The position numbers and the translations under genes were made by a program. A stretch of 64,000 bases of DNA, taken from sequence record KJ190158. One strand, given 5' to 3'. The stretch comes from Escherichia phage FFH2. Under the pieces are notes generated by a model. That model was not told the origin of the DNA and did no database searches. It saw nothing but the letters and a program-made list of their open reading frames with translations. Positions within the stretch are counted from its first letter, which is position 1, and the number at the start of each line of letters is the position of its first letter. Positions 4,898-43,231 of this stretch are shown one piece after another.

Positions 4898-4898
4898 A

Positions 4899-9202: not shown

Positions 9203-9222
9203 GGGGCTTCGGCCCCATTTTA
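9203..9222 (+). terminator. Intrinsic terminator ggggc-ttcg-gcccc plus attttag
   Basis: GC stem-loop and T-run immediately after nrdA stop. Confidence 0.6.
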
Positions 9223-9234
9223 GAGGTTAGAATA

Positions 9235-10323: not shown

Positions 10324-10326
10324 TAT

Positions 10327-29372: not shown

Positions 29373-29499
29373 CACACAATTAGCTGCCCGGCTAAAGTGC
29401 TGGAAGCACCTATAACACATCTTTCAACTAAATTTCCTACCACCACAATCACTTACCTCCCACACATGACTGTTTGCTTGTTTAGTGAGCAGTCATGCC

Positions 29500-29527
29500 T
29501 TGACATTCTTGCCTATCCTGATAAAAT
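29500..29527 (+). promoter_or_regulatory. sigma70-type promoter TTGACA-N16-TAAAAT with TG extended -10, firing into ORF-free region
   Basis: Consensus -35, extended -10; preceded by 8-bp inverted repeat catgactg..cagtcatg; no ORF downstream. Confidence 0.5.
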
Positions 29528-30841: not shown

Positions 30842-30888
30842 GTGACATAATATGACATAATGGTGACACTGAACATAATTGACATGCC
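30842..30888. repeat. Tandem 10-bp iterons (G/A)TGACA(T/C)(A/T)AT
   Basis: gtgacataat-atgacataat-ggtgacactg-aacataattgacatgcc. Confidence 0.55.
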
Positions 30889-30992
30889 TGACTGTTTACA
30901 TAGCTAACTATTCATACAGAAATGATAAGCCATGCCATTCGTTTGCATGATAATAATTAACTTGTTTACAATAGATGACATAATATAAAAGC

Positions 30993-31025
30993 AGGGCAAC
31001 TATTAGAAGATCTATAGTTGCCTTG
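30993..31025. repeat. Near-perfect palindrome around GGCAACTAT / ATAGTTGCC
   Basis: agggcaactat-tagaagatc-tatagttgccttg; 9-mer recurs at 31052 and 31159. Confidence 0.55.
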
Positions 31026-31774
31026 CTTGTTATGTCATGATTAACTAAATACAAGGCAACTATGATCTGATTAATAGTTTGCAGACAAACTATCACGGGG
31101 GTGATGGTTACTGCTTTTATATTATGTCGCGACTCCGTCGCGCCATGCCATTCGTTTGCATAGTTGCCTTATTGTTACAGATAAAATAATTGTATTGTTA
31201 ATTATTTCTTATCTTTCTCTTAGTCATCTAATGATTCCAGTCAGTATAGTAATGTACAGTAAACATTAGACGACTAAAGATTTCTCTGTTTATTATAACT
31301 TACCGTGACAATTTCAGGCTGTTTACGAAAAATGTTGACACCTGGGCCGATTTATGTTATGCAGTTTACACGAATAATTATTTTATGCAGGTATTGACTA
31401 TTCCGTTATTCTATGGTTGGAATAAATACTTAGCAGACTATAGAATGGTGAGCGTACGTAAATTCTGAGATCTGGCGGCTATAGTTATACTCGATTTTTC
31501 ACGTAGAACACGCTTTTGTTAGTGTGTAAGTGTATGACTTATAAAGATTTTTAGTTGTTGACAAGATATTGAAGATGTGCATCAGGTTAAATTTTGTGCA
31601 ATAGCGGCATTACGTGCAATTTTGAGAGAGAAAACGGGTAAAAATGGCCTTGCTATCACACAATGAAAAATTATGCAATAGTTATTTTACATGTATGTTT
31701 GTACAGTGTGTGGGATTGATGGCTAGTCAATTATTCCACTTGCCAGGCTGGGCCGTTTGTGGTAGGAGAAATAC

Positions 31775-31806
31775 AGACAAAAAGAAAGGGGCCTTTTAAA
31801 GCCCCT
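31775..31806 (-). terminator. Intrinsic terminator for leftward cluster
   Basis: aggggc..gcccct stem followed on minus strand by ttctttttg. Confidence 0.55.
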
Positions 31807-31824
31807 GATAGTTTAGTTAAGAAA

Positions 31825-32244
31825 TTATAATGATTCGTATATTTCATAGATTCGATTTGCCAGGTCGTTACGGTAGCGGAATTTTTCCTCACGTTTGATC
31901 ATCAGATCTTTAAAGCCATATTCTTTAAGCACTTCATTAACTTTATGGCGGCATACCTTCATATTATCCTGTGCGTCACCAATAAACCTGTTGCTATGGT
32001 GCATGGCTTTAATTTCTTCTTCCAGGACCAGAGCAACTATGCGGACCGGATCAAGCTGATAGGCGGTAACATCCATGCGGCATTGTAAACGACTTTTTAC
32101 GTCTGCCACCGGATATACTGCAACCTCTTCCCCGTCAACATTGACAATAATTAGTTTACCATCGATTTCGAATCCTTTCGCCGCCGGACCGTGACAAAAA
32201 GCGTTATCAAAGCTATATGCCGGATTATTAGATTTAATGTTCAT
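31825..32244 (-). CDS. hypothetical protein
   Basis: ORF with own promoter (32294-32322) and terminator. Confidence 0.55.
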   Translation of the reverse strand: MNIKSNNPAYSFDNAFCHGPAAKGFEIDGKLIIVNVDGEEVAVYPVADVKSRLQCRMDVTAYQLDPVRIVALVLEEEIKAMHHSNRFIGDAQDNMKVCRHKVNEVLKEYGFKDLMIKREEKFRYRNDLANRIYEIYESL

Positions 32245-32293
32245 GGTGTTTTTACCTCTTAGTTAATTTTCTTACAACTTCCCTTCAAAAAAG

Positions 32294-32322
32294 AATATAG
32301 CAAAACTGCCGATCCTTGTCAA
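32294..32322 (-). promoter_or_regulatory. sigma70-type promoter TTGACA-N17-TATATT (minus strand)
   Basis: Reverse complement gives consensus -35 and -10 upstream of gene 31825-32244. Confidence 0.5.
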
Positions 32323-32390
32323 CCAAGGATAGCATAATTTTTATGTGATCAAGGGGCTTTATTGCCCCCCTGATCGTGCAACTTGTTGTA

Positions 32391-32654
32391 TTATTTGTTG
32401 CTCATCCAGTTTTCCCAAGCTGCCTGATAATCTGCCTCACTGCGGCGGATCTCTTCTTGTTCTTCAAGCCGGATCTCTTCTTCCAGGTACCCCAGGATAT
32501 CGGCTTTTTTGGTCTGGCGTAACATCCAATCATCTTTTTTACGAGTAAAGATCTTATAAGCTTTCTCGCAAACCTCTTTTTTGCTACCTTTTTGGACTTC
32601 AAGAACACGATAAGCCATATATTGAACTAGTTTGAGCTGGTCAAGACGTTTCAT
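32391..32654 (-). CDS. hypothetical protein
   Basis: RBS aaagaggaaaac; flanked by GC hairpins. Confidence 0.5.
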   Translation of the reverse strand: MKRLDQLKLVQYMAYRVLEVQKGSKKEVCEKAYKIFTRKKDDWMLRQTKKADILGYLEEEIRLEEQEEIRRSEADYQAAWENWMSNK

Positions 32655-32714
32655 AGTGTTTTCCTCTTTGTGCGGTTCTGATTAGTGGGCCTTTTGGCCC
32701 GTGTCATTATCTTA

Positions 32715-32987
32715 TTACTTATGGCGGCAGAATTCAAGCGTTTTTAATTGATAATCTTCCTCAGCCTGGAGTACTACCGCCTCGATCATTTCGTTGGCAT
32801 TGTTAAAGCCATAACCTTTAGCGAACTCATCCGCGCCACCTTCGTGATCATGTTCTGCGTTCATCGCTTCCACAAAATGGAATTCCAAATTGTTGAGGTA
32901 GGGGCTTGATGTTCCGTCCTCTTTTTCGATGAGATCCCAGATAGCATTAAAACGTGATTCGACTTCTTGATTAATCCAGCTTGACAT
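32715..32987 (-). CDS. hypothetical acidic protein
   Basis: RBS agagaggaaaac. Confidence 0.5.
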   Translation of the reverse strand: MSSWINQEVESRFNAIWDLIEKEDGTSSPYLNNLEFHFVEAMNAEHDHEGGADEFAKGYGFNNANEMIEAVVLQAEEDYQLKTLEFCRHK

Positions 32988-33198
32988 AATGTTTTCCTCT
33001 CTTCTGGTTGTTGTGTGGGCACTTTTGCCCCTTCAAGATAAATGTTACCCCACCCCCTGGCAGATGTCAACGGTTTTTATAGTTCTTATATGACAGGCAG
33101 GCCCGGTGATTGTCTCCCCCCGTCGCCAGGTGCCTGCCGTTGAATAAGTATAACAAAAAACAGGACCATTGCAAGCCCTGTTTTCTAGTCAATAAGGA

Positions 33199-33390
33199 TT
33201 ATATTTTTTCGCCTATGTAGTCCGGTCGGTTTTTCTCTGTCATGCGCTTTAGCAATTCTTGCATGTTACTTATGGCTTGTAGTGTATCCCCTTCCAGGCT
33301 TGAATCAACATAATCAGGATCGTCTATGACCTTTCTATGATTATGATAACGCAGTACCGCTAATACCTTTCTAACTTGTTCGATATTCAT
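33199..33390 (-). CDS. hypothetical protein
   Basis: ORF only. Confidence 0.4.
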   Translation of the reverse strand: MNIEQVRKVLAVLRYHNHRKVIDDPDYVDSSLEGDTLQAISNMQELLKRMTEKNRPDYIGEKI

Positions 33391-33402
33391 TTTTACCGCT
33401 CT

Positions 33403-33537
33403 TTAAAACAAGGTGCCAACCGTTTCCAATAGATCACTGACTACCAGGACAATACTGATCAGCACATACCTAACCATAAGGGGAAAGAGCGCCAGCGATC
33501 CCGCCACAATCCCCAAGGTGATGATTATCTTTCTCAT
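33403..33537 (-). CDS. Small membrane peptide (44 aa)
   Basis: MRKIIITLGIVAGSLALFPLMVRYVLISIVLVVSDLLETVGTLF; starts 2 nt after upstream stop. Confidence 0.3.
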   Translation of the reverse strand: MRKIIITLGIVAGSLALFPLMVRYVLISIVLVVSDLLETVGTLF

Positions 33538-33539
33538 GG

Positions 33540-33824
33540 TTAACGGTTTACGTAAGCTTTACCGTTTACGGTGATGGGCAGATCTTCCAGGTCTGGATCT
33601 TCCTTAAGGTCGCGAGCAAGCTCACCGCACCGGATACCCTCGAATCCGTAGTACTCTGTCGTGCCGTCCTGGAAAGTTTTAGCGGCAAGGCATAAGCGAT
33701 AAGTAACCCCGATTTGATTGACGGCATGAATATCCGTTAGATTAACCTCTTTTGCCAGCTCTTTAGCCATTACAGGCGCATTAAGTCCAACAACCAGGGC
33801 AACCACTGCGATCATCTTTTTCAT
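33540..33824 (-). CDS. Small secreted/periplasmic protein
   Basis: N-terminal MKKMIAVVALVVGLNAPVMA resembles Sec signal peptide. Confidence 0.5.
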   Translation of the reverse strand: MKKMIAVVALVVGLNAPVMAKELAKEVNLTDIHAVNQIGVTYRLCLAAKTFQDGTTEYYGFEGIRCGELARDLKEDPDLEDLPITVNGKAYVNR

Positions 33825-33915
33825 TGTGTCTATCCTCTTTCTGCTACGTTTAAGGCGGCGGTAACCGCCTGTTTATGCTTTGTTGGTTAATTTTCGGGTA
33901 TCGGTATAAATTAAA

Positions 33916-34131
33916 CTATGCTGTACGCTCAACTATAACAACGGTTTGGGGGATCTCCCCTTCCACCACTAGTAAGGCCTTTTTCTGCGTGATAGATATC
34001 TTTACCCGTTGCAGCGTGGCGGTGAAGTCTTTCATTTCGTCACGTGGTGTTTTAGTGCAATGCCAGATTTCAGGCTTGCCGATCTGTAAGTTGCGTAAAA
34101 ATTCTGTTTTTCCTGTTTTGTTAGTGATCAT
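33916..34131 (-). CDS. hypothetical protein
   Basis: ORF only. Confidence 0.4.
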   Translation of the reverse strand: MITNKTGKTEFLRNLQIGKPEIWHCTKTPRDEMKDFTATLQRVKISITQKKALLVVEGEIPQTVVIVERTA

Positions 34132-34140
34132 TTGTCAACC

Positions 34141-34245
34141 TCACCCGATACCGTTGGAAGACAAGATCACATTAGCCATGGTTGCAATCAGGCCAATACC
34201 TAAGGCAATAACCAGGATCACAGCATCAATTAATTTTTGTTTCAT
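34141..34245 (-). CDS. Small membrane peptide (34 aa)
   Basis: MKQKLIDAVILVIALGIGLIATMANVILSSNGIG. Confidence 0.3.
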   Translation of the reverse strand: MKQKLIDAVILVIALGIGLIATMANVILSSNGIG

Positions 34246-34322
34246 GGTGTTTATTCTCTTCTGTTAGTAACCTTATTCATGGGGCCGTAGCAGCGGCCCC
34301 AGGGTAAGGCGGCTATATGCTT

Positions 34323-34568
34323 TTAGTGTTTCATTCCAACCATCGCGGCACGGATCGCCGTAGTGCTGTACTTGAAGCCGTCCGGGGTCTTATCTTGTCC
34401 GGTTAGCTCCAGAAAAAGCATCATATCCCGCGCCGCATCATTACGATTAGCATTGGCGTTAATAAAGCCTTGGGCCAACCGGTACAATGACTCATCGTTA
34501 TTAATCCAAAGGCTTACATTCCAATGAGTTTTGTTTTTGTAACCGTTATAACCTTTATTGCTTTTCAT
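34323..34568 (-). CDS. hypothetical protein
   Basis: RBS aagaggtaaac. Confidence 0.45.
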   Translation of the reverse strand: MKSNKGYNGYKNKTHWNVSLWINNDESLYRLAQGFINANANRNDAARDMMLFLELTGQDKTPDGFKYSTTAIRAAMVGMKH

Positions 34569-34659
34569 GGTGTTTACCTCTTCTTTGTTCCAGGTGGCGG
34601 ATCATTCTACCACCTTATGTATTATGCTTTGTTAGATGGTTGTTTGTTGTCAAACTATT

Positions 34660-34839
34660 TTAACGATAATCATCATATGCTTTATTGACCTGGCGAATAT
34701 AACATTCAAAAGCTAGATCAATAGATTTATATTCACGGATATATTCACCGTAGGAAACCACATACATTTCTATAGCTTCCTCATATGCGAGTAGAATAGA
34801 ATCTAAGCCTACGATCTCAGTCTTTGCAATAATAGCCAT
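34660..34839 (-). CDS. hypothetical small protein (59 aa)
   Basis: ATG after aaagagga RBS; below ORF-track cutoff. Confidence 0.4.
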   Translation of the reverse strand: MAIIAKTEIVGLDSILLAYEEAIEMYVVSYGEYIREYKSIDLAFECYIRQVNKAYDDYR

Positions 34840-34914
34840 GATTTTTATCCTCTTTGTGGTTGGTGGGGCTTGTTGCCCCCTTTGATTTATATATTACAGT
34901 CTTATATGGTCATG

Positions 34915-35148
34915 TCAACTATTTTCAAAAAATTTTTCTGCTGTGATATTCTTCCCGGTAGGGTTCGCTACTTTCAAAATTTTATCATGCACTGGACGCC
35001 CAAAAGAATAAGCGCCGTACACAGTAAACCAATAATCGCCGTCAGGTTGTACTATTACCGCCGCATATGGTACGCCTTTTTCGTTTTTGCTGACAAAATA
35101 GATCACATTGCCATTAATAGCCTCAGCGCGTTTAATTTGTTCCATCAT
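34915..35148 (-). CDS. hypothetical protein
   Basis: RBS aagagagg. Confidence 0.45.
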   Translation of the reverse strand: MMEQIKRAEAINGNVIYFVSKNEKGVPYAAVIVQPDGDYWFTVYGAYSFGRPVHDKILKVANPTGKNITAEKFFENS

Positions 35149-35202
35149 GATGATTTACCTCTCTTTATTTTCATAATTGGGGCCTTTTCGGCCCCGCCAG
35201 GT

Positions 35203-35487
35203 TTATTTATTGATAGCGTGCAGTGGGAAAGGTACGCCAGGTTGATAAATAACCTTTACAACCTCATCAGGACAAAAGAAGTTGCAGAACTCACCGCAAT
35301 ATGCCTCATCCTCTTTCAACTCTTCATCAACATACTCAAAAAAGTAGTCGATGCTTGGATAATCCTGGCCGGGATTATAGTCAACCATCGTTAATAATAA
35401 CTCTTGATCATTCCGTAGGATGTGCATACCCGCTTTTAAGTATTTTGCTTCCATTTCTACTACATCGCCAGCGGTAACAATAGCCAT
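35203..35487 (-). CDS. hypothetical acidic Cys-containing protein
   Basis: ORF with RBS. Confidence 0.45.
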   Translation of the reverse strand: MAIVTAGDVVEMEAKYLKAGMHILRNDQELLLTMVDYNPGQDYPSIDYFFEYVDEELKEDEAYCGEFCNFFCPDEVVKVIYQPGVPFPLHAINK

Positions 35488-35689
35488 GATTTTAACTCCT
35501 ATCTATCTGGTCAACGATTGGGGGCCTCCCCCTCGACAACTCTTATTATCCATATTGTCGGGAATGATGCAAGTACTTCTTTAAAAATTTTTTAAGCGCC
35601 CCGTATGCCGTTGTAACGCCAAAATAATAAAGGCCATGCGGTTGCATGGCCTTTATGTGATTATATTGCTGCAGGCCCTGCTAGGGGCC

Positions 35690-36040
35690 TTATTTTGCAT
35701 TCTTGCCTGTATTGCCGCCACGGTACCAGCGTCTGCGGTGAAAATGGTAATAATCACCCTCGGCATTAAACATCAGATGATTTTCAATAACCAGCTTACG
35801 AAGGTAGGCCGGATCTTGTTCCATTCTTGCCAGATTCCAGCGGCTGTTACGTAAGCGTATAAATTCCATATTCAGGCCGTTGATTGCAGTATGGATGTCA
35901 AAGTAACCACCTTTGAGACGTTCACGCATGGCGTTAAGCTCAACACAATATACAGATTTCTCACAAATCAAGGTATTAGCTATGGCGCGGACCTGGGCAA
36001 GGGGGTTAAGCTCATTAAGGTAATATAGTTTTATTTTCAT
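35690..36040 (-). CDS. hypothetical protein
   Basis: ORF with RBS caggtg. Confidence 0.45.
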   Translation of the reverse strand: MKIKLYYLNELNPLAQVRAIANTLICEKSVYCVELNAMRERLKGGYFDIHTAINGLNMEFIRLRNSRWNLARMEQDPAYLRKLVIENHLMFNAEGDYYHFHRRRWYRGGNTGKNAK

Positions 36041-36057
36041 AAAATCACCTGCTGAAA

Positions 36058-36366
36058 TTAGTTTGAGAAAACATCGTTCACAATAGCGATCACAATGCCG
36101 CCCACCTTGTCACGGTCAACAACGCACAAATCACCATAGATCATGCGGTAGTCTGGATGATCTTTCACAGAATAGTCAATAAGTGTTTTCTTGTCGTCCA
36201 GCTTCGTAACTTCCATTCTCATAACGATATGAGAATCATCAAAGGCATTATTCCGAAAAGTCATAGCCTGACCGCCAGGGCACCCGGTGATCTCCACTTC
36301 CACACCATCTACGATCTGACCATCAAAGAAATAAAGATTATTAGCCTGGATAAACATGTCTATCAC
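36058..36366 (-). CDS. hypothetical protein
   Basis: RBS aaggagtg; conserved 45-bp element upstream. Confidence 0.45.
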   Translation of the reverse strand: MIDMFIQANNLYFFDGQIVDGVEVEITGCPGGQAMTFRNNAFDDSHIVMRMEVTKLDDKKTLIDYSVKDHPDYRMIYGDLCVVDRDKVGGIVIAIVNDVFSN

Positions 36367-36450
36367 TCCTTGTTAACTGCGTGGTCTTTTAACAGGGTTT
36401 AAATTTACTTTATTGATGGCCCTGAAGTCAAGGCCATCTAAAAATAAATT

Positions 36451-36651
36451 TTACAGGCCTACAATCTCTTTGATTCGTTTAACCGCCGCCTCAGCGCCTT
36501 GGGGGTAAAAATTATGGTAACCAATCACGCGAGTGATACTAATCGCCGTTTGATGATCTTCATAGTCGCCCTTGAAGATTTCTTGACCGTCAATCAGCAC
36601 GGCAATTTTTTCTTCTTTTTTGAAGTTAATAACGCGGATATTGTTGCTCAT
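36451..36651 (-). CDS. hypothetical protein
   Basis: RBS aaaggagaaac. Confidence 0.45.
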   Translation of the reverse strand: MSNNIRVINFKKEEKIAVLIDGQEIFKGDYEDHQTAISITRVIGYHNFYPQGAEAAVKRIKEIVGL

Positions 36652-36930
36652 TTTTGTTTCTCCTTTCTGGTTTTTGTGTTGGTGGGGATGTTTCCCCGTT
36701 GATTGTTATTATCCATATTGCGGACCAGATTGCAACACCCTGGAAGAAAAATTTTTTGAAAAAGTTAAGCCCCCATGATCGGGGGCGTTATCAGTTACTT
36801 ATAGCAATAAAGTACATTCCTACCCCTAACAATATTTCAAGGGCGATGATCTCAAGCCATACCATAACACGGCGCACCTTATCAGCGCATGGCTTATCCT
36901 TGGTTGTCATCGTCTCCCCCTTCCCTCCTG

Positions 36931-37152
36931 TTAGTAGTGACGTGGTTTACAATGGCCCCCAGGAGTCCTATCACCACGCACACCACAAGAAAAATTATCT
37001 CCGCTGTTGTTCGATCCATTGTTATAAAATTCCTCAAGATCAGGCCTGAAAATAAAGCGTTCGTTATTGAATCCGTCACGCCAGGCGGCTGGCTTCAAAT
37101 CTTCACTAAAGGGATTAATTAACGTGACGTTATTTAAACGGCTGGTCCACAT
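36931..37152 (-). CDS. hypothetical protein
   Basis: ATG 37152 after gagagga; alternative overlapping frame 36894-37016 encodes a TM peptide. Confidence 0.35.
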   Translation of the reverse strand: MWTSRLNNVTLINPFSEDLKPAAWRDGFNNERFIFRPDLEEFYNNGSNNSGDNFSCGVRGDRTPGGHCKPRHY

Positions 37153-37503
37153 ATTTTCTATTCCTCTCAAATAGGCGATCCGCCTCAGTTAAACATATCT
37201 CATGGGCTTGGTCTCTGGTTTTAGCCTCATCAAAAACCTGTTGTGCCAGGCTGCAGCGTAGGGAGACTGGAAGATCACTATAATAGGCGTTGACAAACGT
37301 TTGTGCGTCATACAGGTCGGAAAACACTTTACCCTTTCTATTATCGCCCTTGTCAACAATTGCAAGGATAACCAATACAATAGTTGCAACCACTCCCAGG
37401 AAAATAGATATAACAAACCATAGAAAAGCGGATCTACCTATCTTGCCAGCGATCCAGGCGTTGAACAAGGCAACTACTACAGCCAAAATAATAAATTCCA
37501 TTC
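37130..37503 (-). CDS. Membrane protein (2 predicted TM)
   Basis: ATG 37503 after aaagagg; hydrophobic N-terminal half. Confidence 0.45.
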
Positions 37504-37565
37504 TATGTACCTCTTTTGCAGTTCTGTTTAACAATAAGGCGGCAAATATGCCGCCTGTTACCTGA

Positions 37566-37946
37566 TTAAAAATTATCGCCGTAAATCTTTCCGCTTTCTG
37601 CCCACACCACCACGCGGGGCATGTTATCCCATACATCTTGTTTCAGATTTAACGCGTGCAATTCTTCGGTGGTGCTCATACCAGGCACGGGCTGATTGTA
37701 TACTGCAAAACGACCACCTGCATAATCATAGGCCAGGGTTAAATCACACTGAATCATCTTTTTGATCATGGCGTTGAGCATAGCGTTAGCCGCATACTGG
37801 TCACGTTTTAAAGGCAACTCTTTGATTAGTTTGCGATAGTTTTCAATGTGATCGCACACTGTTTCACGTGGAAGATCTTTCATATCCTCGCGAAAGGTAA
37901 CCAGGTTAAACATAACGGTGTCAATAGCTTTAGTAGTGTTTTTCAT
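37566..37946 (-). CDS. hypothetical protein
   Basis: RBS aagaggaaaac. Confidence 0.5.
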   Translation of the reverse strand: MKNTTKAIDTVMFNLVTFREDMKDLPRETVCDHIENYRKLIKELPLKRDQYAANAMLNAMIKKMIQCDLTLAYDYAGGRFAVYNQPVPGMSTTEELHALNLKQDVWDNMPRVVVWAESGKIYGDNF

Positions 37947-38035
37947 AATGTTTTCCTCTTTGTTTTGTGTGGGGCAAACGTCTTGCCCCCTTGAGTTTTA
38001 ATATAGCAGGTTTTTAGATTATTGCAACACTTTAT

Positions 38036-38659
38036 TTATGAAAAACTCATCTCTCCATATTCATCTACATCAAACCGCCAATCATTGGCCTCAATAAGGC
38101 CGATCAGGTTTTCGGTAGTGAACTGCTCTAGATAGGCCTCCTCCAGGTCTACGTAAACCTTGCGGGATAGCTCCCGTACCGTCTCGGTGATCAGCTCTTC
38201 CAGGTCTTCCACTTTGTTTTCTTGTTTGGCGGTCAGATCTAGCCAGGTGGTATCAATGTATCCGCTTACAGTGTTTTCATGGCTGTAATGGCTGTACTTG
38301 TCGCGTTCAATACTGGCTGATAACTCGCCATCGTGCATTGTGCCGAACAAGTGACGAATTGATCGGAACTTGGTCAGGGCCTTTACTTTACGCAAGAATT
38401 TTTCTAAATCCACGTTTTCAGCACTGATTGACGCGCCGTCACCCTGGCACCAAAAGCCGGACCAATGTACATCGGTATCTTCAAGGCCGTACTCTGGAAA
38501 AACTTGTTCTTTATAATATTCAATTACACTTTCTGCGAAAAAATCCTCTCCGCTGTGTTCTTCTCTTTCGCGGACCATTTCAATAGCTTTTTCTTTTTGT
38601 TCGTCGGTCAGCACGTCGAAAGATAAATTGCAACCTGTGGTAATGTTAACGGTGGTCAT
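38036..38659 (-). CDS. hypothetical strongly acidic protein (207 aa)
   Basis: RBS aggagaaaat; very high Asp/Glu content. Confidence 0.5.
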   Translation of the reverse strand: MTTVNITTGCNLSFDVLTDEQKEKAIEMVREREEHSGEDFFAESVIEYYKEQVFPEYGLEDTDVHWSGFWCQGDGASISAENVDLEKFLRKVKALTKFRSIRHLFGTMHDGELSASIERDKYSHYSHENTVSGYIDTTWLDLTAKQENKVEDLEELITETVRELSRKVYVDLEEAYLEQFTTENLIGLIEANDWRFDVDEYGEMSFS

Positions 38660-38733
38660 GATATTTTCTCCTGTTTTCTTTGTTAGTGGCGGGAAGTTTT
38701 CCCGCCTGTGTGTTTAATTATACTTATTGAGAT

Positions 38734-38994
38734 TTACTTGTCAACACTATTTTTTAAATTATTGTGGCGCAAAATGTTTAAAATCTCTTCAACGTCATCA
38801 ACACGGCGGCAATTTTTAAACGCTACCAATTGCCCCATGATTTTAATCACTGGGCGGCCTTGCCAGTGCCCCTGGAGAAAGCGCGCCTTGACTTTATCGG
38901 TGGGACTATCACGCCACCAAATGGCCTTGTTATTGCAGTAGTAAAAATTATTCAGGACAATATCAACTTTATCAAAATTTTTTAATTTACGCAT
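38734..38994 (-). CDS. hypothetical basic protein
   Basis: RBS aaggagtaaac. Confidence 0.45.
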   Translation of the reverse strand: MRKLKNFDKVDIVLNNFYYCNNKAIWWRDSPTDKVKARFLQGHWQGRPVIKIMGQLVAFKNCRRVDDVEEILNILRHNNLKNSVDK

Positions 38995-39239
38995 AGTGTT
39001 TACTCCTTCCTTCTTGCTTTGATGTGGTTAGTATATCCGGACTATTCCAAGGTGTCAAGCTTTAAATAAAATCACTGTCAATGATATTTTTAACACCATA
39101 AAACGGCCCTAGGCGATGTTTTCAGGTTAATAAAGGGGATTGCATAGGTAGGGGCTTTTGTGGCGTTTGTGGGGCCAACCAGGGGCGCTATTCGTAGGAT
39201 AGAAATAAAAAGCCCCGCACAATGGCGGGGCGTTGGTTG

Positions 39240-39437
39240 CTATTTGTCTTTGTGGCGGTATCGTTCCGCCTGTCGTTCACGTTCCAAAAGCAGGCCCGGT
39301 AATTTGCGATCATAGTGATTTCTCCAGATCTTCCCGAACCTTTTCGGTTTATTCAGTTTATTGTTACGCTGGCGGCGTTCCGGCAGCTCTTCGGAATCGT
39401 GGGGGCGCTTTACAATTTTTTCGAAATTAATTTTCAT
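39240..39437 (-). CDS. hypothetical basic protein
   Basis: ATG 39437 after aagggggcg. Confidence 0.4.
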   Translation of the reverse strand: MKINFEKIVKRPHDSEELPERRQRNNKLNKPKRFGKIWRNHYDRKLPGLLLERERQAERYRHKDK

Positions 39438-39780
39438 AAACGCCCCCTTTACTGATCTCAATATTTGCCTGAATCGCCCGGATACGACGTTTTATAGTCT
39501 CCTGATCCTTGCAATCATATCCCCAAAAGTCTACGATTTTTGCGCCGCCAGCCTTTAAGCGGTATAATGTTTCTTGCATCTTGTAAGCTGGGATCGGTCT
39601 CGGTGTTACCTGGTCCCCTTTCCCATCCTTGTACTTGATAATGTAGTCTTCGTTGTCGTTGAATACCCAAAATGGGTATTCTGTAAGCGCGTTGCTCTCT
39701 TTTTCGTTTTTGGATTGGATCTTGTTTACAATTAAAGCCGTAGCAATAGCGCCAATAATAAAACTTGCCCCGCTGATCAT
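39427..39780 (-). CDS. hypothetical protein with N-terminal TM helix
   Basis: ATG 39780 after aaaggagaaag. Confidence 0.45.
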   Translation of the reverse strand: MISGASFIIGAIATALIVNKIQSKNEKESNALTEYPFWVFNDNEDYIIKYKDGKGDQVTPRPIPAYKMQETLYRLKAGGAKIVDFWGYDCKDQETIKRRIRAIQANIEISKGGVYEN

Positions 39781-39856
39781 GTTACTTTCTCCTTTCATTG
39801 TGCTGATAAACTATCTTTATAGATGGCCCTGCCACCAGGACCACCGAAAAAACAGT

Positions 39857-40102
39857 TTATTTGACGATACCGACAAAACAGATCCCGCCTTCCCCTATAT
39901 AGGCAATATCGGTAATTTTATAATTTGTCAAGATCCGCGTGTTCAGATCATTAATAAAATCGGTCATCGCGTTGGTGTAGTTGTCTTCCGTGTCTAAGGC
40001 ATAATCCCAGGTGTAAACCTTTTTACGTCCGAAGCCTTTTACCATGATACGGGCGCTTTTGGTGTTGGTAGGGGCATAATATTTGGTAATTAGTGCGGCC
40101 AT
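39857..40102 (-). CDS. hypothetical protein
   Basis: RBS agaggag. Confidence 0.45.
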   Translation of the reverse strand: MAALITKYYAPTNTKSARIMVKGFGRKKVYTWDYALDTEDNYTNAMTDFINDLNTRILTNYKITDIAYIGEGGICFVGIVK

Positions 40103-40191
40103 TGTTTTAACTCCTCTATATTAGTTCAGTGTTAACAGTGTAAAGTTTACTTTATTGATGGCCCTGGAGTCAAGGCCATCTAAAAATAAAT

Positions 40192-40533
40192 TTACTCGTT
40201 TTCTTCCAGTTCTGCAAGCTCTTCTTTCACTTCTTCAAGCTCTGTCTGTAATTCTTGGTATTCTTCATCGTCCTCAATATCCAGGCTGTCGATGTAGTCG
40301 CTAAATCCGCAGCGGTAAGCGATAGGATCTAGCTCCTTGAGGATACGCGACGGAAGAAAAGAAATGTTTCCGATCATAATTTCGCCGTAGATCTCGTCTA
40401 ACCATTCATCATAGTTTTCGTCGTACTTGTCCTCGTCGATTTCAAAGTTATCGATCTTATTCTCAAGGTCTGCGATCTGTTTTTTCAGCGCGGCGATCTG
40501 CATGGCTTTTTCTGCGGCGGTCATAGTAGTCAT
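40192..40533 (-). CDS. hypothetical acidic coiled-coil protein
   Basis: RBS aaaggagaaaac. Confidence 0.45.
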   Translation of the reverse strand: MTTMTAAEKAMQIAALKKQIADLENKIDNFEIDEDKYDENYDEWLDEIYGEIMIGNISFLPSRILKELDPIAYRCGFSDYIDSLDIEDDEEYQELQTELEEVKEELAELEENE

Positions 40534-40611
40534 GGTGTTTTCTCCTTTTGTGTGTTCTGGGAAGTTTTCCCGTTTATGTGTTTAGTATACTGATCTAAGT
40601 TAGCTTGTCAA

Positions 40612-40731
40612 TTAAAAGTTTAAGAAAAATTTTGCGATACCGTTGGCGCTACCCATCAACATTTGCGCCAGGATGTAACCAATGATGCAAACGATAATAG
40701 TTACCTTTGTGTGCTGGCGTGTAGTACTCAT
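40612..40731 (-). CDS. Small membrane peptide (39 aa)
   Basis: Strong RBS aaaaggagg; MSTTRQHTKVTIIVCIIGYILAQMLMGSANGIAKFFLNF. Confidence 0.4.
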   Translation of the reverse strand: MSTTRQHTKVTIIVCIIGYILAQMLMGSANGIAKFFLNF

Positions 40732-40810
40732 CTTCAAGCCTCCTTTTAGCTTAACTGGGATTAGTTTACTTTATTGATGGCCCTGGCGTCAAGACCATCT
40801 AAAAATAAAC

Positions 40811-41206
40811 TTAGTAAGTTTTCAGTACTTTCCCGTCCAATCTGTCAAGCTGGATCTCGATAGCTGCAGAAAACCTATTATAAACCACATCGCCCATGGA
40901 GTCCAGCCAATCTATGACGTTATACACCTGCTCTTTATTCTTGCAAGTCCGGATCCGTTTCATTACGTAAGACGGATCAATATTAGTGCTCTCGTTGTTG
41001 TGGTCATGCGCCTGGCCTGCTGCATTAGTTATAGATTTTACAACCACCTGAAAGGGCTTTAAGGTGCCTTTTGCGTTCATCTCACGCGCTTTTGCGGCGC
41101 GGTTGTTATATGTTACACAACGGCGGCAAATGTTGACCAAATGCATATCAATAATTTTTTCATCGTTTGCCAGTTCGTTCATGATGCGGCGTACGTTCTT
41201 ATTCAT
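40811..41206 (-). CDS. hypothetical protein
   Basis: RBS aaaggaaaaag. Confidence 0.45.
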   Translation of the reverse strand: MNKNVRRIMNELANDEKIIDMHLVNICRRCVTYNNRAAKAREMNAKGTLKPFQVVVKSITNAAGQAHDHNNESTNIDPSYVMKRIRTCKNKEQVYNVIDWLDSMGDVVYNRFSAAIEIQLDRLDGKVLKTY

Positions 41207-41292
41207 GATCTTTTTCCTTTGTGTTGGCGGGAAACATTCCCGCCTTTTGTGCCCAGTTTACTTTAATTTTGCAGCGTGTCAATAATTTTTTT

Positions 41293-41691
41293 TTATTCGT
41301 GGGCGCATGTCACAATGTGCTTTTTATACCCCAGGTGGGCAGCAAGTGCTGACAAAAACTCATCTTCATAGATCCAGCCGTTGGCAGTGATCCCCATAGC
41401 ATTTAACGCGCTTTCAAGTGCTGCATTGGCCTTATCATAACCGTGACCGCTCGCCTTGCCACCAGTATAACCGTACTTGTTGTTCTTGCTGTCGTGCATC
41501 CAAAAGACGCAATAATGAGTGTTACCGCTGGAGGCGGCATAGTACCGGATCTCCGCTACTTCGTGCAAATTATTATCATCGTCCAGGCCAACCAGATTAT
41601 AAGCCTTGTAAAATCCACGATCACGGCGGCAGTTCTTGACATCAGAAAAAGAGAAGTCGGCATTGTCAAAATTAAAGGTTGTGGTTTTCAT
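41293..41691 (-). CDS. hypothetical protein
   Basis: RBS aagaggataaaatc. Confidence 0.45.
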   Translation of the reverse strand: MKTTTFNFDNADFSFSDVKNCRRDRGFYKAYNLVGLDDDNNLHEVAEIRYYAASSGNTHYCVFWMHDSKNNKYGYTGGKASGHGYDKANAALESALNAMGITANGWIYEDEFLSALAAHLGYKKHIVTCAHE

Positions 41692-41755
41692 GATTTTATC
41701 CTCTTAGTGTCTTTTGTGATTTCAGTATATTTTGTGTCGGGGCGTATGTCAATAC

Positions 41756-41953
41756 TTATTTTTTATTAAACCAGTGATTGATCTGACCTTTTGTCAGGGC
41801 GCAACGATTAAGTTGGTGCCGGGTATAGCTCTGACCGCGACGGAATTTATAAAGGCCTTGCCCGTTGTTGATGGTTACGTCCACCTGGCAAACCATTTGA
41901 TCGGTGACCACCTGGCGAGCGTTGCGACGTACTTTGATTCCGTAGGCGTTCAT
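41756..41953 (-). CDS. hypothetical basic protein
   Basis: RBS gagaggataaaaaatc. Confidence 0.45.
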   Translation of the reverse strand: MNAYGIKVRRNARQVVTDQMVCQVDVTINNGQGLYKFRRGQSYTRHQLNRCALTKGQINHWFNKK

Positions 41954-42038
41954 GATTTTTTATCCTCTCTGTTAATTAGTGTGGTGTTGTTCACCTTGCG
42001 AGGATAAGAATAACAAGAACTGTCCGAGCTGTCAACTA

Positions 42039-42215
42039 TTAGTTAAAATTATTTTTTGGGCGGAATTCTCCAGCCGCCGCCCCTGCCAGGTTAACCATCA
42101 TTTTTTCGTACTCTTCTTTATATTCCAACGCTCCCGCTATAGCCTTTTCAACCAGGGCGATAGCCTCAGCGTCATTAATAGCTACATTTTCCAGGGGGAT
42201 CATATTACCTTTCAT
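42039..42215 (-). CDS. hypothetical small protein (58 aa)
   Basis: Strong RBS agaggaggtacaaaa then ATG; first gene downstream of repeat region on minus strand. Confidence 0.45.
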   Translation of the reverse strand: MKGNMIPLENVAINDAEAIALVEKAIAGALEYKEEYEKMMVNLAGAAAGEFRPKNNFN

Positions 42216-42474
42216 TTTTGTACCTCCTCTTCAATTGTTACCTATCCTATAGCATAGGCCCACCAGGTTTACAAGCCTTCATTCTCTCCTACCTGGTCAG
42301 TTAGGTCCTGCCAGGCTGGCCCCACTAGGTTGCAGCGGTTAGTGCATCAGGTTAGAAAAATTTTTTGAAAAGTGTTGACAGCGGCCCCGCCAGGTGGCAC
42401 AATATACCTATCGAAAGGACGGCAGGCACCGGTGACGGGGGAGACAACCACCGGGGATGGGCGCTGCATAAAAT

Positions 42475-42497
42475 GAGAACGGTTATCATTATCATTT
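42475..42497. promoter_or_regulatory. Fur-box-like site
   Basis: Reverse complement aaatgataatgataaccgttctc matches GATAATGATAATCATTATC at about 16 of 19. Confidence 0.4.
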
Positions 42498-42610
42498 AAA
42501 AATTTATGCAAAAAATCCTTGCTTTCTTTGTCCTGTGTGATACTATAATAACAAGCCGGGGCAACAGGGGCCGGGAGACAATCACCGGGCCTGCCCGTTA
42601 TTCTGCAAAC

Positions 42611-42627
42611 GAGAATGATTATCATTC
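42611..42627. promoter_or_regulatory. Fur-box-like site
   Basis: gagaatgattatcattc / rc gaatgataatcattctc matches Fur consensus at about 15 of 16. Confidence 0.4.
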
Positions 42628-43231
42628 AAAATTCTAAATGAGAACTCCTCGCATTTAATAAATTTAATTAGCACGCTAATTACACTCCGTAACAATTTAC
42701 TATAAAATAGTATCCACTAAAATATTCCCATATAGAAATTTTAAAAATCCATTTCTGAAAACGAAAAATCGATTTCGTCCCTAAAAATTTCAGGCCTAGA
42801 TCCGGAACGATTTCCAGAAAATCCGATTCAGAAAACGAAAAACAGATCGAGTACTGAGAAATTTATCGAGAAAAATTTTCAGAAAATCCAAGCCCTGAAA
42901 TGAAAAGTAGATCGAGTACCTGGAAAGCTGCACCGCAACTTCAAGATAGTGGTTAGATTGTTACCATAGAAGGTCAAGGGTAAGTGGAGGAAGTTCTAGT
43001 AGAGGGAGGTTAGCATGTGTGGGAAATCTATAATGGTGGCCTGGAATATAGTGCAAACGATAGGATGAGTTATTCAGCTTGTCGCGCCTACTCTGAAAAA
43101 TCCATTTTAGTTTTCGATCCATTTTCTGATTTTCTAAGAATTTTAAAATATCCGGCCCGGTGAAATATCAAAAGGAGGAAATCCATTTTAGAAATCCCCC
43201 TTATACTTGATATGCCAGGAATTTTCAAGTA

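Follow-up and report, generated by a model that had tools for sequence, protein, structure and literature searches.

A hyperplastic and probably early-expressed small-gene block at the end of the leftward replication arm of an rV5-like coliphage

Introduction

The promoter-early stem-loop (PeSL) has been defined, and functional data on it reported, in earlier work (PMC2839356). For the subfamily considered here, the corresponding block, which is rich in promoters and made up of short hypothetical ORFs, has been described as a 'likely early gene region' (PMC7344957). The main text of the rV5 paper lists gp30-64 and gp133 as virion proteins, none of which is encoded on the arm that carries the block studied here. 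In the literature we found no report of PeSL cassettes in rV5-like phages, no transcript, start-site or timing data for any Vequintavirus and, for this arm, neither expression time courses nor knock-down experiments. In this study we analyse a block of small genes in a window of 64,000 nucleotides from Escherichia phage FFH2 (KJ190158).

Results

By nucleotide record matching the window belongs to an rV5-like coliphage (Vequintavirus), with several records ~95% identical. Positions 31825-42215 were matched in 288 phage records, and the best 30 of the 288, at ~93-96% identity, are all rV5-like Vequintavirus with the same ORFs annotated. The block equals bas56_0099-0129 of BASEL phage AlexBoehm, every one annotated as hypothetical. 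The leftward arm also carries rIIB, helicases, primase and DNA polymerase, and the block follows downstream of them on the same strand. It is well conserved, forms the last part of the replication-gene arm, and is an ordinary, probably early accessory region that is already annotated in relatives.

Positions 31825-42215 are filled by an unbroken run of small minus-strand ORFs (all coordinates below are on the minus strand). Where the earlier note had proposed a leftward cluster of about 30 genes of 30-200 aa, we count 29 well-supported genes (34-207 aa), together with a doubtful ORF, g30, and a possible membrane ORF of 41 aa that overlaps another gene. Its limits hold for the promoter-plus-hairpin cassette, which is concentrated within these coordinates, but not for small genes as such, which resume after a gene-poor stretch of 1 kb and continue up to ~51 kb of the window. 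In the comparison with relatives pN/pS was ≤0.29 in 26 of 30 genes. Each ORF matches a PHROG family of its own, all of unknown function; judged from these sequences the small genes are real.

The composition that had been claimed for the products was borne out by direct reading of the translations. Hydrophobic peptides, at least five as proposed, are encoded by g5 (44 aa, 33403..33537; GRAVY 1.71), g8 (34 aa, 34141..34245; pN/pS 0.14), g16 (39-aa membrane peptide, 36791..36910; 0.13), g26 (39-aa membrane peptide, 40612..40731; 0.20) and the possible overlapping ORF (41 aa, 36894..37019), which has one predicted transmembrane helix (MDRTTAEIIFLVVCVVIGLLGAIV...). Read in a different frame, this ORF overlaps the 3' half of g17 (73 aa, 36931..37152; phrog_12060), whose N-terminal 47 aa are conserved and whose C-terminal part is variable. 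It is kept in 7 relatives with hydrophobic-to-hydrophobic substitutions, and pN/pS is 0.55 in its frame versus 0.84 in that of g17. The signal-peptide protein is g6 (94 aa, 33540..33824; phrog_9845; pN/pS 0.24), with a canonical Sec-type N-terminus, MKKMIAVVALVVGLNAPVMA/KE, and its product is probably periplasmic.

Seven products are acidic (pI 4.1-4.7): g3 (90 aa, pI 4.4, 32715..32987; pN/pS 0.04), with homologues scattered among siphophages, g10 (59 aa, 34660..34839; 0.02), g12 (94 aa, pI 4.2, 35203..35487; 0.09), g14 (99 aa, 36058..36357; 0.19), g20 (207 aa, 38036..38659), g25 (113 aa, pI 4.1, coiled-coil-like, 40192..40533; 0.08) and g30 (58 aa, 42039..42215). With a pN/pS of 1.83, g30 is a doubtful or decaying ORF; its frame is broken in three of four relatives and intact in one, it is partly deleted in Murica and ime, and the AlexBoehm annotation leaves it out. 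Basic proteins are g7 (71 aa, 33916..34131; 0.07; with homologues in Seunavirus-like phages of Salmonella and Enterobacter), g9 (81 aa, 34323..34568), g13 (116 aa, 35690..36040), g21 (86 aa, 38734..38994; 0.14), the very basic g22 (65 aa, 39240..39437; 0.01), g27 (131 aa, 40811..41206; 0.16) and g29 (65 aa, pI 10.7, 41756..41953; 0.29). In g13 (pN/pS 0.81) amino-acid changes are in excess in the window's lineage, with six window-specific substitutions.

The remaining genes are g1 (139 aa, 31825..32244; phrog_12277; pN/pS 0.08), the last gene of the arm, with a 91% identical homologue in Phapecoctavirus ESCO13; g2 (87 aa, charged and helical, 32391..32654; 0.05); g4 (63 aa, 33199..33390; 0.16); g11 (77 aa, 34915..35148; 0.04); g15 (66 aa, 36451..36651; 0.02); g18 (123 aa, two N-terminal transmembrane helices, 37130..37501; 0.09); g19 (126 aa, 37566..37946; 0.04), with an ESCO13 homologue 67% identical; g23 (117 aa, N-terminal transmembrane helix, 39427..39780; 0.12), the most divergent gene of the block (minimum nucleotide identity 82%); g24 (81 aa, 39857..40102; 0.09), with few relatives overall and homologues in Queuovirinae; and g28 (132 aa, 41293..41691; 0.07), with a homologue in Certrevirus CB7.

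No enzymatic family was detected in Pfam, NCBIfam or PADLOC, in line with the earlier reading that no enzymatic motif can be recognised, and the only named families are those of g9 (DUF7249, PF23907, a small 4-helix protein) and g22 (T7 gene 1.1, PF08200; 1.8e-9 and 38.4 bits, with the cut-off at 21), which the Murica record notes as 'T7 gp1.1-like'. The product of g20 belongs to a very large family that is absent from Pfam and has invariant G-F-x-x-Q-G-x-G-A ... Y-x-H motifs. Some records label g2 'DNA translocase', for which the Pfam scan gives no support; relatives carry g18 as a 'putative holin' or a 'membrane protein', and the Pfam scan returned no holin family match; one record's 'putative acetyltransferase' for g28 is unsupported by Pfam and PHROG scans.

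It had been proposed that each gene has its own promoter, hairpin and ribosome-binding site. The last part stands: a strong Shine-Dalgarno (SD) of the AGAGG/AGGAG type, 5-12 nt before the ATG and usually within ACAAAGAGGAAAACA-like leaders, precedes 26-27 of 30 genes. However, only 15-16 of 30, about half, have a sigma-70 match scoring 9/12 or better in the 170 nt upstream. A perfect GC stem of at least 5 bp is carried by 12 of 23 leaders. Genes lacking a promoter sit in short operons (g4-g5-g6, g7-g8, g13-g14, g16-g17-g18 and g22-g23). Sites of at least 10/12 number 11 on the coding strand and none on the opposite strand (simulation, 2.0 ± 1.4), and UP-like tracts precede the -35, with an AT content of 74% over 25 nt versus 57% in the region. 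The density of sigma-70 promoters is similar over both arms of the window, so promoters alone do not set the block apart as expressed before the replication genes.

The hairpins are frequent, as the earlier note had said, and far above chance (0.41 stems expected from dinucleotide shuffles; 3 of 117 coding windows), but they are mostly leader stems 3' of a promoter, without a T-run, rather than terminators. In six cassettes a gap of 10-11 nt separates the -10 from the stem, which would then begin at about +4 to +5 of the transcript, given the usual ~7 nt from -10 to start site. These are the cassettes of g3 (32988..33070; TTGACA-17-TAACAT, stem 33017-33030, gap 11, A/C-rich leader), g10 (34840..34918; TTGACA-16-TAATAT, stem 34865-34879, gap 11), g15 (36652..36735; TTGCAA-16-GATAAT, stem 36684-36697, gap 10), g19 (37947..38027; TTGCAA-16-TATATT, stem 37971-37989, gap 10), g20 (38660..38744; a perfect 12/12 TTGACA-16-TATAAT, stem 38688-38706, gap 10, folded leader -14.6 kcal/mol) and g27 (41207..41282; TTGACA-16-TAAACT, stem 41226-41244, gap 10), all with an SD. 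Eight minus-strand promoter-plus-stem composites occur in the 64 kb, against 0.85 expected per strand, and six of them lie at 33.0-41.3 kb with the 10-11 nt gap. In folded leaders the stem starts at +3 to +7 and the SD is open.

Stems also accompany promoter and SD at g9 (34569..34653; TTGACA, 9/12, imperfect stem 34593-34614), g12 (35488..35572; TTGCAT-16-GATAAT, stem 35520-35532) and g25 (40534..40611; TTGACA-16-TATACT, 11/12, stem about 40558-40572). A 63-nt repeat, D1, provides the cassettes of g14 (36358..36452; T-rich tract, -35 TTGACT, -10 TAAATT, SD), g24 (40103..40194) and g26 (40732..40813), in which the stem (36415-36438, 40157-40180 and 40776-40799, respectively) encloses the -35; a degenerate D1-like copy upstream of g23 (39797..39859, stem 39822-39845) is 62% identical to the reference copy. 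No leader stem is seen at g1 (32245..32322; TTGACA-17-TATATT, 11/12, TG-extended, with SD) or g21 (38995..39058; TTGACA-17-TATACT, 11/12); the leader of g28 (41692..41752; TTGACA-17-TATACT, 11/12) is unstructured and that of g29 (41954..42035; TTGACA-17-TATTCT, 10/12) has a weak stem. Leader stems lacking a promoter precede g2 (32687..32700), g6 (33853..33870), g8 (8 bp, 34280..34301) and g11 (35179..35195), and an 8-bp stem between g19 and g18 (37537..37556), followed by TATTGTT, may be a weak terminator or a leader stem. Terminator-like hairpins follow g1 at the end of the arm (31787..31806, with T-run), g4 (14 bp, 33154..33187, with T-run), g13 (13 bp, 35627..35656), g16 (36769..36786) and g22 (39212..39231; GCCCCGC...GCGGGGC with TTTTTATTT); a GGGGC-loop-GCCCC stem follows g2 (32353..32368). 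In 7 relatives the leader stems are kept; most of the variation falls in the loops, and some stems have been rebuilt. The cassette elements are thus far above chance, of fixed spacing and conserved as stems.

Where close relatives have gained or lost whole genes, repeated cassette elements mark the boundaries. Phage ime has lost g25 and g26 together: in place of the window's D1-g26-g25-D1 it carries only one D1 copy, the recombination partners being the D1 copies of the g26 (upstream) and g24 (downstream) cassettes. It also has an extra gene, on either side of which a leader is repeated, the one adjoining the g2 stem. HMD-6 lacks g1, g4, g6 and g13. There g1 was lost between two GGGGC...GCCCC stems (left breakpoint 31787..31806, right partner 32353..32368), and hairpin 33154-33187 is the breakpoint of the g4 loss and of a 312-nt gene indel. 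In both HMD-6 and ime a divergent allele replaces g8. The indels of g5 (deleted gene-precisely in Murica and JLBYU08), g6 and g13 are gene-precise with no visible flanking repeats, so repeat-mediated recombination is not the sole route.

Discussion

We favour, with some reservation, the view that the leftward replication arm ends in a hyperplastic accessory block, probably expressed early, in which about 30 real small genes are arranged as expression cassettes. In a full cassette an AT-rich tract of the UP-like kind precedes a near-consensus sigma-70 promoter, which unmodified host RNA polymerase would read; a short GC stem-loop lies either 10-11 nt past the -10 or around the -35; and an unstructured, A/C-rich leader brings a strong Shine-Dalgarno and the ATG. 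Genes in such cassettes would probably be expressed strongly from the first minutes after infection. 5'-Terminal stem-loops of the ompA type protect mRNA against RNase E; the 5'-proximal stem may likewise stabilise the message and possibly attenuate read-through.

Early expression of the block is likely. The pointers are the predicted near-consensus host promoters with UP-like tracts, the T7 gene 1.1 homologue g22, and g9, whose homologues in podophages lie 0.2-3 kb from the left genome end; the published inference for Certrevirus and rV5 agrees with early timing. An early, host-directed accessory region is a reasonable inference from promoters, arm and homologues, and the membrane peptides, the one secreted protein and the acidic and basic small cytoplasmic proteins might act early on host or phage processes.

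The earlier note went further, to host take-over and anti-defence. It is possible that some of the proteins counter host defences, yet this is not indicated by our data: Pfam, PHROG, NCBIfam and PADLOC gave no homology to characterised anti-defence or take-over proteins, and AlphaFold models of g20 and g9 matched no solved fold. Most genes are under strong purifying selection with 90-100% conservation across the genus, which is not visibly arms-race-like. Moreover, the Vequintavirinae are reported by the BASEL study to be 'exceptionally susceptible' to restriction-modification systems and apparently to have no effective protection (PMC8594841), which argues against an Ocr/ArdA-type function of the acidic proteins.

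The cassette architecture has a parallel in the T4-type phages, with whose hyperplastic regions the block shares the PeSL cassette design. As proposed for PeSLs there, the repeats could serve as homology patches for cassette shuffling. However, PeSL stems are reported to be effective terminators (PMC2839356), whereas most stems of the block have no T-run, and their role may therefore differ. The same design recurs in the sister subfamily, where ESCO13 has a promoter in 21 of 27 leaders and a perfect stem in 17 of 27, although it has only 9 of the 30 genes in common with the block.

Genomic context of the small-gene block

The leftward cluster of small genes (window 31825-42215, minus strand; genes g1 at 31825 to g30 at 42215) belongs to a well-sampled group of phages. 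By megablast, 288 phage records match this block, and the best of them (A6-1, SophiaRose, AlexBoehm, inoa, rV5 derivatives and Murica; 100% coverage, 93-96% identity) are all Vequintavirus, that is, rV5-like myoviruses. In the BASEL phage AlexBoehm (Bas56) the block corresponds to bas56_0099-0129, where every product is annotated as hypothetical bar one 'putative holin'. The earlier observation of this region was essentially right: the region is real, hundreds of genomes already carry an annotation of it, and the interpretation as early and accessory is standard. Among the matching records, 23 are titled 'Campylobacter phage' and are 93-95% identical to this rV5-like region, at least one of them being marked UNVERIFIED; these are probably coliphages whose names wrongly follow the source of isolation. 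In one such record, 'Campylobacter phage C9' (MG065661), 2 kb of sequence from g4 to g12 are deleted.

The window consists of two convergent arms with a gene-free gap of ~2.5 kb between them. The rightward arm (window 1 to ~29.3 kb) encodes an anaerobic NTP reductase, PhoH and a ClpP-like protease, followed by ~45 small genes. The leftward arm runs from rIIB through helicases, a Dcm-like methylase, a primase/helicase and DNA polymerase into ~55 small genes, and ends with g1. In AlexBoehm the DNA polymerase is annotated as two joined pieces, and a homing endonuclease gene lies within it (AlexBoehm 38999-42618, ~window 51.3-55 kb), and in Murica and JLBYU08 a macro-domain gene lies between polymerase and cluster.

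At 92-95% in 120 records, the conservation of the gap (window 29300-31824) resembles that of the coding DNA on either side. The gap is probably what the rV5 paper shows as a 'non-coding' box, located at the GC-skew switch (PMC3606486). It has plus-strand sigma-70 sites at 29500 (11/12, TG), 30822 and 30852 with no ORF downstream, as well as short repeats at 30491-30525 and 30833-30868; neither a tRNA nor an Rfam family was found in it. An origin, a packaging site or non-coding RNAs could be among its contents. Physical genome ends in the gap would make the cluster the first DNA to enter the cell; the 'repeat_region' features of phage isim, which we looked at for such ends, are short internal repeats and speak neither for nor against them. 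Across the window, the Rfam scan gave no match at gathering level and the tRNA search gave none; matches to Clostridium-PBP and suhB were rejected as sub-threshold and overlapping leader or terminator hairpins.

On the other side of the block, upstream of g30, there is a gene-poor stretch of 1 kb (window 42216-43231) with small indels in relatives. The AATGGATTTTY / GGATTTTCTGAAAA motif is found there 6-7 times, with three longer copies at 42726-42926, and GC-rich CCGGTGRTTGTCTCCC elements are present as well; these sequences resemble iterons or the binding sites of a regulator. A 29-nt element is present twice in inverted orientation, 9.4 kb apart, in the spacer between g3 and g4 (33090-33118) and in the gene-poor stretch (42573-42601). 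The two copies are 93% complementary, and their RNAs could pair if both were transcribed from the minus strand.

Coding potential and selection

The ORF list, the upstream sequences and three annotated relatives yield 30 minus-strand ORFs of 34-207 aa, in agreement with the roughly 30 leftward small genes that the earlier note had proposed. When synonymous and non-synonymous differences were counted against seven relatives, pN/pS was at most 0.29 in 26 of the 30 ORFs, and we therefore regard these 26 as real protein-coding genes. Values of ≤0.08 were obtained for g9, g10, g15 and g22, among others; the value of g5 comes from two comparisons. For g30 pN/pS is 1.83, its frame is broken in three of four relatives and it is partly deleted in two; from its sequence we consider it a doubtful or decaying ORF. 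For g13 (35690-36040) pN/pS is 0.81 with few synonymous changes. Six of its amino-acid substitutions are absent from all six relatives and the gene is missing in HMD-6; these substitutions may represent lineage-specific adaptive change or relaxation.

The N-terminal half of g17 is conserved. Its 3' half overlaps an unannotated ORF of 41 aa (36894-37019, minus strand), which has one transmembrane helix, is read in another frame and extends over the start of g16. The frame of this ORF is kept in seven relatives with hydrophobic substitutions, and the g17 frame is poorly constrained over the same stretch, so that the 3' half of g17 seems better explained by the overlapping membrane ORF than by g17 itself.

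Further properties of the gene set match the first description. A strong Shine-Dalgarno sequence precedes 26-27 of the 30 genes, as expected from the strong ribosome-binding sites claimed for most of them. The signal-peptide protein is g6, with a Sec-type signal, and small acidic and basic proteins are represented by seven each. Hydrophobic peptides of the announced size occur as well; we count four to five of them, of 34-44 aa.

Protein families and database labels

All 30 proteins were scanned, concatenated in threes, against Pfam, PHROGs, NCBIfam and PADLOC. Every one falls in a PHROG family of unknown function, and only g9 (DUF7249) and g22 (T7 gene 1.1) have a Pfam family. The statement that no protein carries an enzymatic motif held up, with no enzymatic family in the Pfam, NCBIfam and PADLOC scans. 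Sequence searches of the PDB with all 30 proteins and two g20 profiles returned no relative. We dismissed the NCBIfam and PADLOC matches of g25, which are far below cut-off and have the appearance of coiled-coil or acidic noise. The homologue search for g24 gave 9 proteins, all near-identical.

The match of g22 to PF08200 (T7 gene 1.1) scores 38.4 bits (cut-off 21; E 1.8e-9) and covers profile positions 1-32 of 40; relative to this family g22 has an additional basic C-terminal tail. For g9 the match to PF23907 (DUF7249) reaches 47.2 bits against a cut-off of 27, and PF23907 was found in every listed g9 homologue. The DUF7249 family is large and made up of stand-alone proteins of ~75-100 aa. 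From coliphages to Pseudomonas phages 16 of its positions are invariant, among them W16, N17, W21, D25 and R73 of g9; since these residues are kept across such distant hosts, a conserved partner is suggested. The structure model of g9, a confident one, predicts a small helical fold without significant match to known structures. In several podophage genomes g9 homologues are found 0.2-3 kb from the left end.

The family of g20 (38036-38659) is very large: 6,504 cluster representatives (50% identity clustering) were retrieved at E≤1e-3, mostly stand-alone proteins of ~190-200 aa. It is absent from Pfam-A and gave no fold match in the PDB. One copy forms part of a protein of 1,479 aa whose N-terminal domain is Fic/DOC. 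The family has an invariant site, Q-G-x-G-A / Y-x-H (Q72, G73, G75, A76, Y125 and H127 in g20), and the model of g20 predicts an alpha/beta fold that carries a conserved polar motif and is not a known DNA mimic.

Several labels in related genomes were rejected. The 'YeeU-like antitoxin' assigned to g20 in JLBYU08 and Klebsiella phage Muenster has neither family nor fold similarity to YeeU/CbeA, and no family or fold support was found for 'acetyltransferase' (g28), 'phosphonoacetaldehyde hydrolase' (g25), 'DNA translocase' (g2) or 'Rel homology domain' (g1). Not counted among these is the 'putative holin' of AlexBoehm, g18, which has two N-terminal hydrophobic helices; it matches no holin family in Pfam and no endolysin lies nearby.

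Promoters coupled to stem-loops

The coding strand of the block contains 11 sigma-70 sites matching at least 10/12 consensus positions (one of them 12/12), whereas the other strand has 0 and simulated sequence 2.0 ± 1.4. The 25 nt upstream of the -35 box are AT-rich, with a mean of 74% vs 57% regionally, a value reached by 0 of 5000 random samples. The claim that each gene has its own promoter is true for about half of the block: a sigma-70 match of at least 9/12 lies upstream of 15-16 of the 30 genes, and the remaining genes are arranged in short operons. Promoters alone do not distinguish the block, because their density is similar along the coding strand throughout the window.

What sets the block apart is the coupled stem-loop. 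The frequent GC hairpins of the first description were recovered as perfect GC stems in 12 of 23 leaders, the intergenic stretches upstream of the genes, vs 0.41 in shuffles; among coding windows used as control 3 of 117 have such a stem. Composites of a promoter followed by a GC stem are concentrated here as well: on the minus strand of the 64 kb, six of eight lie at 33.0-41.3 kb (null 0.85 per strand), and in all six the gap between -10 and stem is exactly 10-11 nt. If transcription starts ~7 nt past the -10, as is usual, folding places the leader stems at +3 to +7 and leaves the A/C-rich remainder and the Shine-Dalgarno sequence unpaired. For the folded leaders the predicted minimum free energy lies between -6 and -15 kcal/mol. 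We refer to this unit of AT-rich tract, promoter, GC stem-loop and leader as a cassette. A second cassette type, D1, is a 63-nt repeat with three copies and one degenerate copy, whose stem encloses the -35 hexamer with a T-rich tract ahead of it. The stems persist in seven relatives, where changes fall mostly in loops and altered stems are rebuilt.

The cassette design extends to the sister subfamily. In ESCO13 (Phapecoctavirus), which shares 9 of the 30 genes, a promoter was found in 21 of 27 leaders and a perfect stem in 17; here the pattern is followed still more regularly than in the window. At ESCO13 1300-11500 a near-invariant cassette precedes almost all small genes (TTGACA-N16-TAAnnT ... 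cacgTAG-GGCGGC-AATGG-GCCGC ... AAGAGG ... ATG), and its stems are similar to the GGCGGGAA...TTCCCGCC stems of the window.

As to the function of the stems, most are followed by 0-3 T in the next 9 nt and hence are not canonical terminators, since they have no T-run. Six other hairpins do have T-runs; they are terminator-like and are annotated as terminators in Murica. Processing sites for RNase III, in the manner of T7 early RNA, were rejected for the hairpins, whose stems of 5-8 bp are too short for this enzyme. We favour mRNA stabilisation over termination, because the fixed gap of 10-11 nt puts the stem, mostly without a T-run, at the predicted 5' end.

Gene gain and loss at cassette boundaries

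We mapped indels of at least 40 nt against seven Vequintavirus relatives. Phage ime is without g25 and g26 and has one D1 copy exactly where the window reads D1-g26-g25-D1. The same phage has an extra 219-nt gene with the 'actaatca...cacaaagag' leader on both sides. HMD-6 is without g1, and its junction lies between two GGGGC-loop-GCCCC stems. At the hairpin 33154-33187 the window lacks a 312-nt gene that four relatives have. The losses of g5, g6 and g13 are gene-precise and without visible repeats. Because indels are bounded by repeated cassette elements, the region behaves like the hyperplastic regions associated with promoter-early stem-loops (PeSLs) in T4-type phages. Single genes are individually dispensable, since g1, g4, g5, g6, g9, g13, g25 and g26 are each missing from at least one natural isolate. 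Between subfamilies the gene content is largely replaced, and most genes are absent from sister genera with the same replication and structural core.

Taken together, the cassettes would drive early expression through the host polymerase, the 5' stem would act as an mRNA stabiliser, and the repeated cassette elements would mediate gene shuffling; we regard this joint mechanism as reasonably probable. It might be argued instead that intrinsic terminators or insulators of the ordinary kind account for the hairpins, and convergent regulatory signals for the repeats, with no role for either in mRNA stability or recombination, and that the indels are illegitimate events tolerated only between genes. 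The six hairpins with T-runs, annotated as terminators in Murica, would agree with this, as would the termination by PeSL stems in RB49 (PMC2839356) and the indels of g5, g6 and g13 without visible flanking repeats. However, most leader stems have few T residues behind them and stand at a fixed 10-11 nt past the -10, a placement that would be pointless for a terminator. Moreover, the ime junction keeps exactly one D1, as a repeat-mediated deletion would, and the extra ime gene sits between duplicated leaders. We therefore consider the terminator explanation very improbable.

A further reading takes the cassette stems as a DNA-level recombination signal, by analogy to integron attC sites, and g20 as a new early-infection enzyme or effector. 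Jointly these two proposals seem to us a distinctly long shot. If they were true, the block would be a cassette platform through which ORFans pass between Vequintavirinae, Stephanstirmvirinae and other phages, perhaps aided by a phage factor devoted to this task. Its cargo g20 would stand for a family of great size, with at least 6,500 clusters (50% identity), which lies outside Pfam and has a fold unseen in the PDB; the invariant site and the one copy in a Fic-domain protein would go with an enzyme or effector.

Possible role of the block

The best reading of the sequence data is that the block is transcribed early by the host polymerase. This rests on the promoters, the relatives of T7 1.1 and DUF7249, the position on the replication arm, the list of rV5 virion proteins, from which block products are absent, and what has been inferred in the literature. 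In the literature we found no transcriptome, knock-down, escape-mutant or timing data for this arm; in the rV5-like phage EdH4, CRISPRi-ART was applied to MCP and rII only.

The earlier note went further and saw a host-takeover and anti-defence region. Most proteins would then be immune inhibitors (DNA mimics, enzyme inhibitors) or shut-off factors with quick arms-race turnover. The architecture is typical of early accessory regions, g3, g10, g12, g14, g20 and g25 are strongly acidic, and the replaced content between subfamilies, the cassette-level gains and losses within the genus and the excess of amino-acid changes in g13 would fit such turnover. The g20 domain in a Fic-domain protein, as in 'polyvalent' conflict proteins, and the macro-domain gene farther up the same arm point in the same direction. 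Yet no positive evidence for an anti-defence role emerged. None of the 30 proteins shows homology to known anti-defence proteins in Pfam, PHROGs, NCBIfam or PDB sequences, including Ocr/ArdA (Pfam and PDB sequences), and structure prediction for g20 and g9, the two proteins modelled, gave no DNA mimic or other known fold. The strong purifying selection on 26 of the 30 genes, which are mostly 90-100% identical across the genus, argues against quick turnover. Vequintavirinae are also 'exceptionally susceptible' to restriction-modification (RM) systems and commonly targeted by Abi systems (PMC8594841), so that the protection from restriction expected with Ocr/ArdA is not seen in the literature, and later papers report restriction by Druantia, ARMADA, Avs2 and retron Eco2. 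An island devoted mainly to immune evasion or host takeover is hence unlikely.

Alternatively the genes might mainly serve the phage itself and not act against the host, in delayed-early or middle expression together with the upstream replication genes, as replication accessory proteins, early-to-late regulators, or factors for membrane remodelling, superinfection exclusion or lysis timing. Block and replication genes share strand and arm, sigma-70 promoters are equally dense over both arms, and many members are very conserved, such as g9, g10, g15 and g22; the conserved partner suggested by the invariant residues of DUF7249 would fit as well. Membrane proteins and the signal-peptide protein would suit exclusion or lysis timing, as would the holin label of g18. 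Against this stand the natural isolates that each manage without one or another of g1, g4, g5, g6, g9, g13, g25 and g26, the absence of most genes from sister genera that share the replication and structural core, and the Pfam scan, in which no DNA-binding or regulator family was detected. We rate this housekeeping role as quite unlikely, and early expression from the host polymerase remains our preferred interpretation.

Significance

rV5-like phages are among the coliphages isolated most often and are candidates for therapy and biocontrol, yet the block, some 10 kb of their genome, carries no functional assignment. New in this study are the evidence that the ORFs are under selection, the identification of one doubtful ORF (g30) and one overlapping ORF (36894-37019), and the recognition that the promoter, hairpin and RBS pattern is a PeSL-like cassette of fixed geometry by which gene gains and losses are delimited. 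With the rejected annotations, misleading labels are removed from five genes, and DUF7249 and the g20 family become priorities for experiments. The cassettes might be of use in engineering, as insertion sites presumed safe and as strong portable promoter-leader modules, and could aid pangenome analysis. The work on the block yields no new mechanism by itself.

Comparison with known systems

In its general layout the block may be compared to the T7 class I/II early region (genes 0.3-1.3), the T4 early ORFans and the T5 pre-early genes, which likewise provide small, mostly non-essential proteins early through host RNA polymerase. The likeness to T7 includes g22, a member of the gene 1.1 family, and g9, with its relatives in the left-end region of podophages. 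In contrast, no homologues of Ocr, gp0.7, gp2, gp5.9, Alc, AsiA or A1 were found among the 30 proteins (Pfam, PHROGs), and the early mRNAs of T7 have RNase III sites between them instead of short 5' stems. A 5'-terminal stem-loop of the ompA type reportedly serves as an mRNA stabiliser (a finding credited to Emory, Bouvet and Belasco in 1992). The leaders in the window would resemble it in having a stable hairpin a few nt from the predicted 5' end, followed by an unstructured leader with a Shine-Dalgarno sequence.

Within the same subfamily, sigma-70 promoters with UP elements have been described in Certrevirus (CB7, CR3, CR8, CR9), where they are concentrated among short hypothetical ORFs in a 'likely early gene region' (PMC7344957). 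Certrevirus and rV5 resemble the window in the logic of position and in having sigma-70 and UP promoters near replication genes (PMC7344957; PMC3606486). The available passages of these two papers describe promoters alone; a stem-loop, fixed spacing and cassette-bounded indels do not figure in those passages.

The closest parallel are the PeSLs, known from RB49/phi1, PST/T4 and nt-1/KVP40 (Arbiol, Comeau & Krisch 2010, PMC2839356; Comeau et al. 2014, PMC4122927). A PeSL consists of an AT-rich tract and a strong sigma-70 promoter together with a GC stem-loop, for which there are five positional subclasses, and ends in a Shine-Dalgarno sequence with ATG; PeSLs are located between small ORFans of hyperplastic regions (PMC2839356), and have been proposed to mediate modular shuffling in T4-type phages (PMC2839356, PMC4122927). 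RB49 PeSL stems have been shown to terminate transcription (PMC2839356). Promoter activity and cassette mini-circles that form in the course of infection also characterise PeSLs. In full-text searches we found PeSLs discussed for T4-type phages only, and promoter-stem cassettes in rV5-like phages were not found. The window cassettes have the same components (AT-rich tract, sigma-70-like promoter, GC stem-loop of the GGGG...CCCC type, Shine-Dalgarno sequence and start codon) and likewise occupy the intergenic sequence, from the stop codon of the upstream gene to the Shine-Dalgarno sequence and start codon of the downstream one. Two stem subclasses are present, downstream of the -10 (six, gap 10-11 nt) and around the -35 (D1). 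The cassettes lie among small ORFans in a variable region, their composites being concentrated at 33.0-41.3 kb of the 64-kb window, and they bound indels between close relatives (ime, HMD-6 and the 312-nt gene, but not g5, g6 and g13). They differ in that the dominant class of the window has a fixed gap of 10-11 nt, a stem at the predicted mRNA 5' end and mostly no T-run, and in that the rV5-like Vequintavirus studied here and the Phapecoctavirus ESCO13 are both unrelated to T4-type phages (Straboviridae). Because the phage is not T4-type, we call its cassettes PeSL-like rather than members of the T4-type element family, and propose them as an analogue of T4-type PeSLs without claiming homology. 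As such, PeSL-type modular shuffling appears to extend beyond the T4-type phages.
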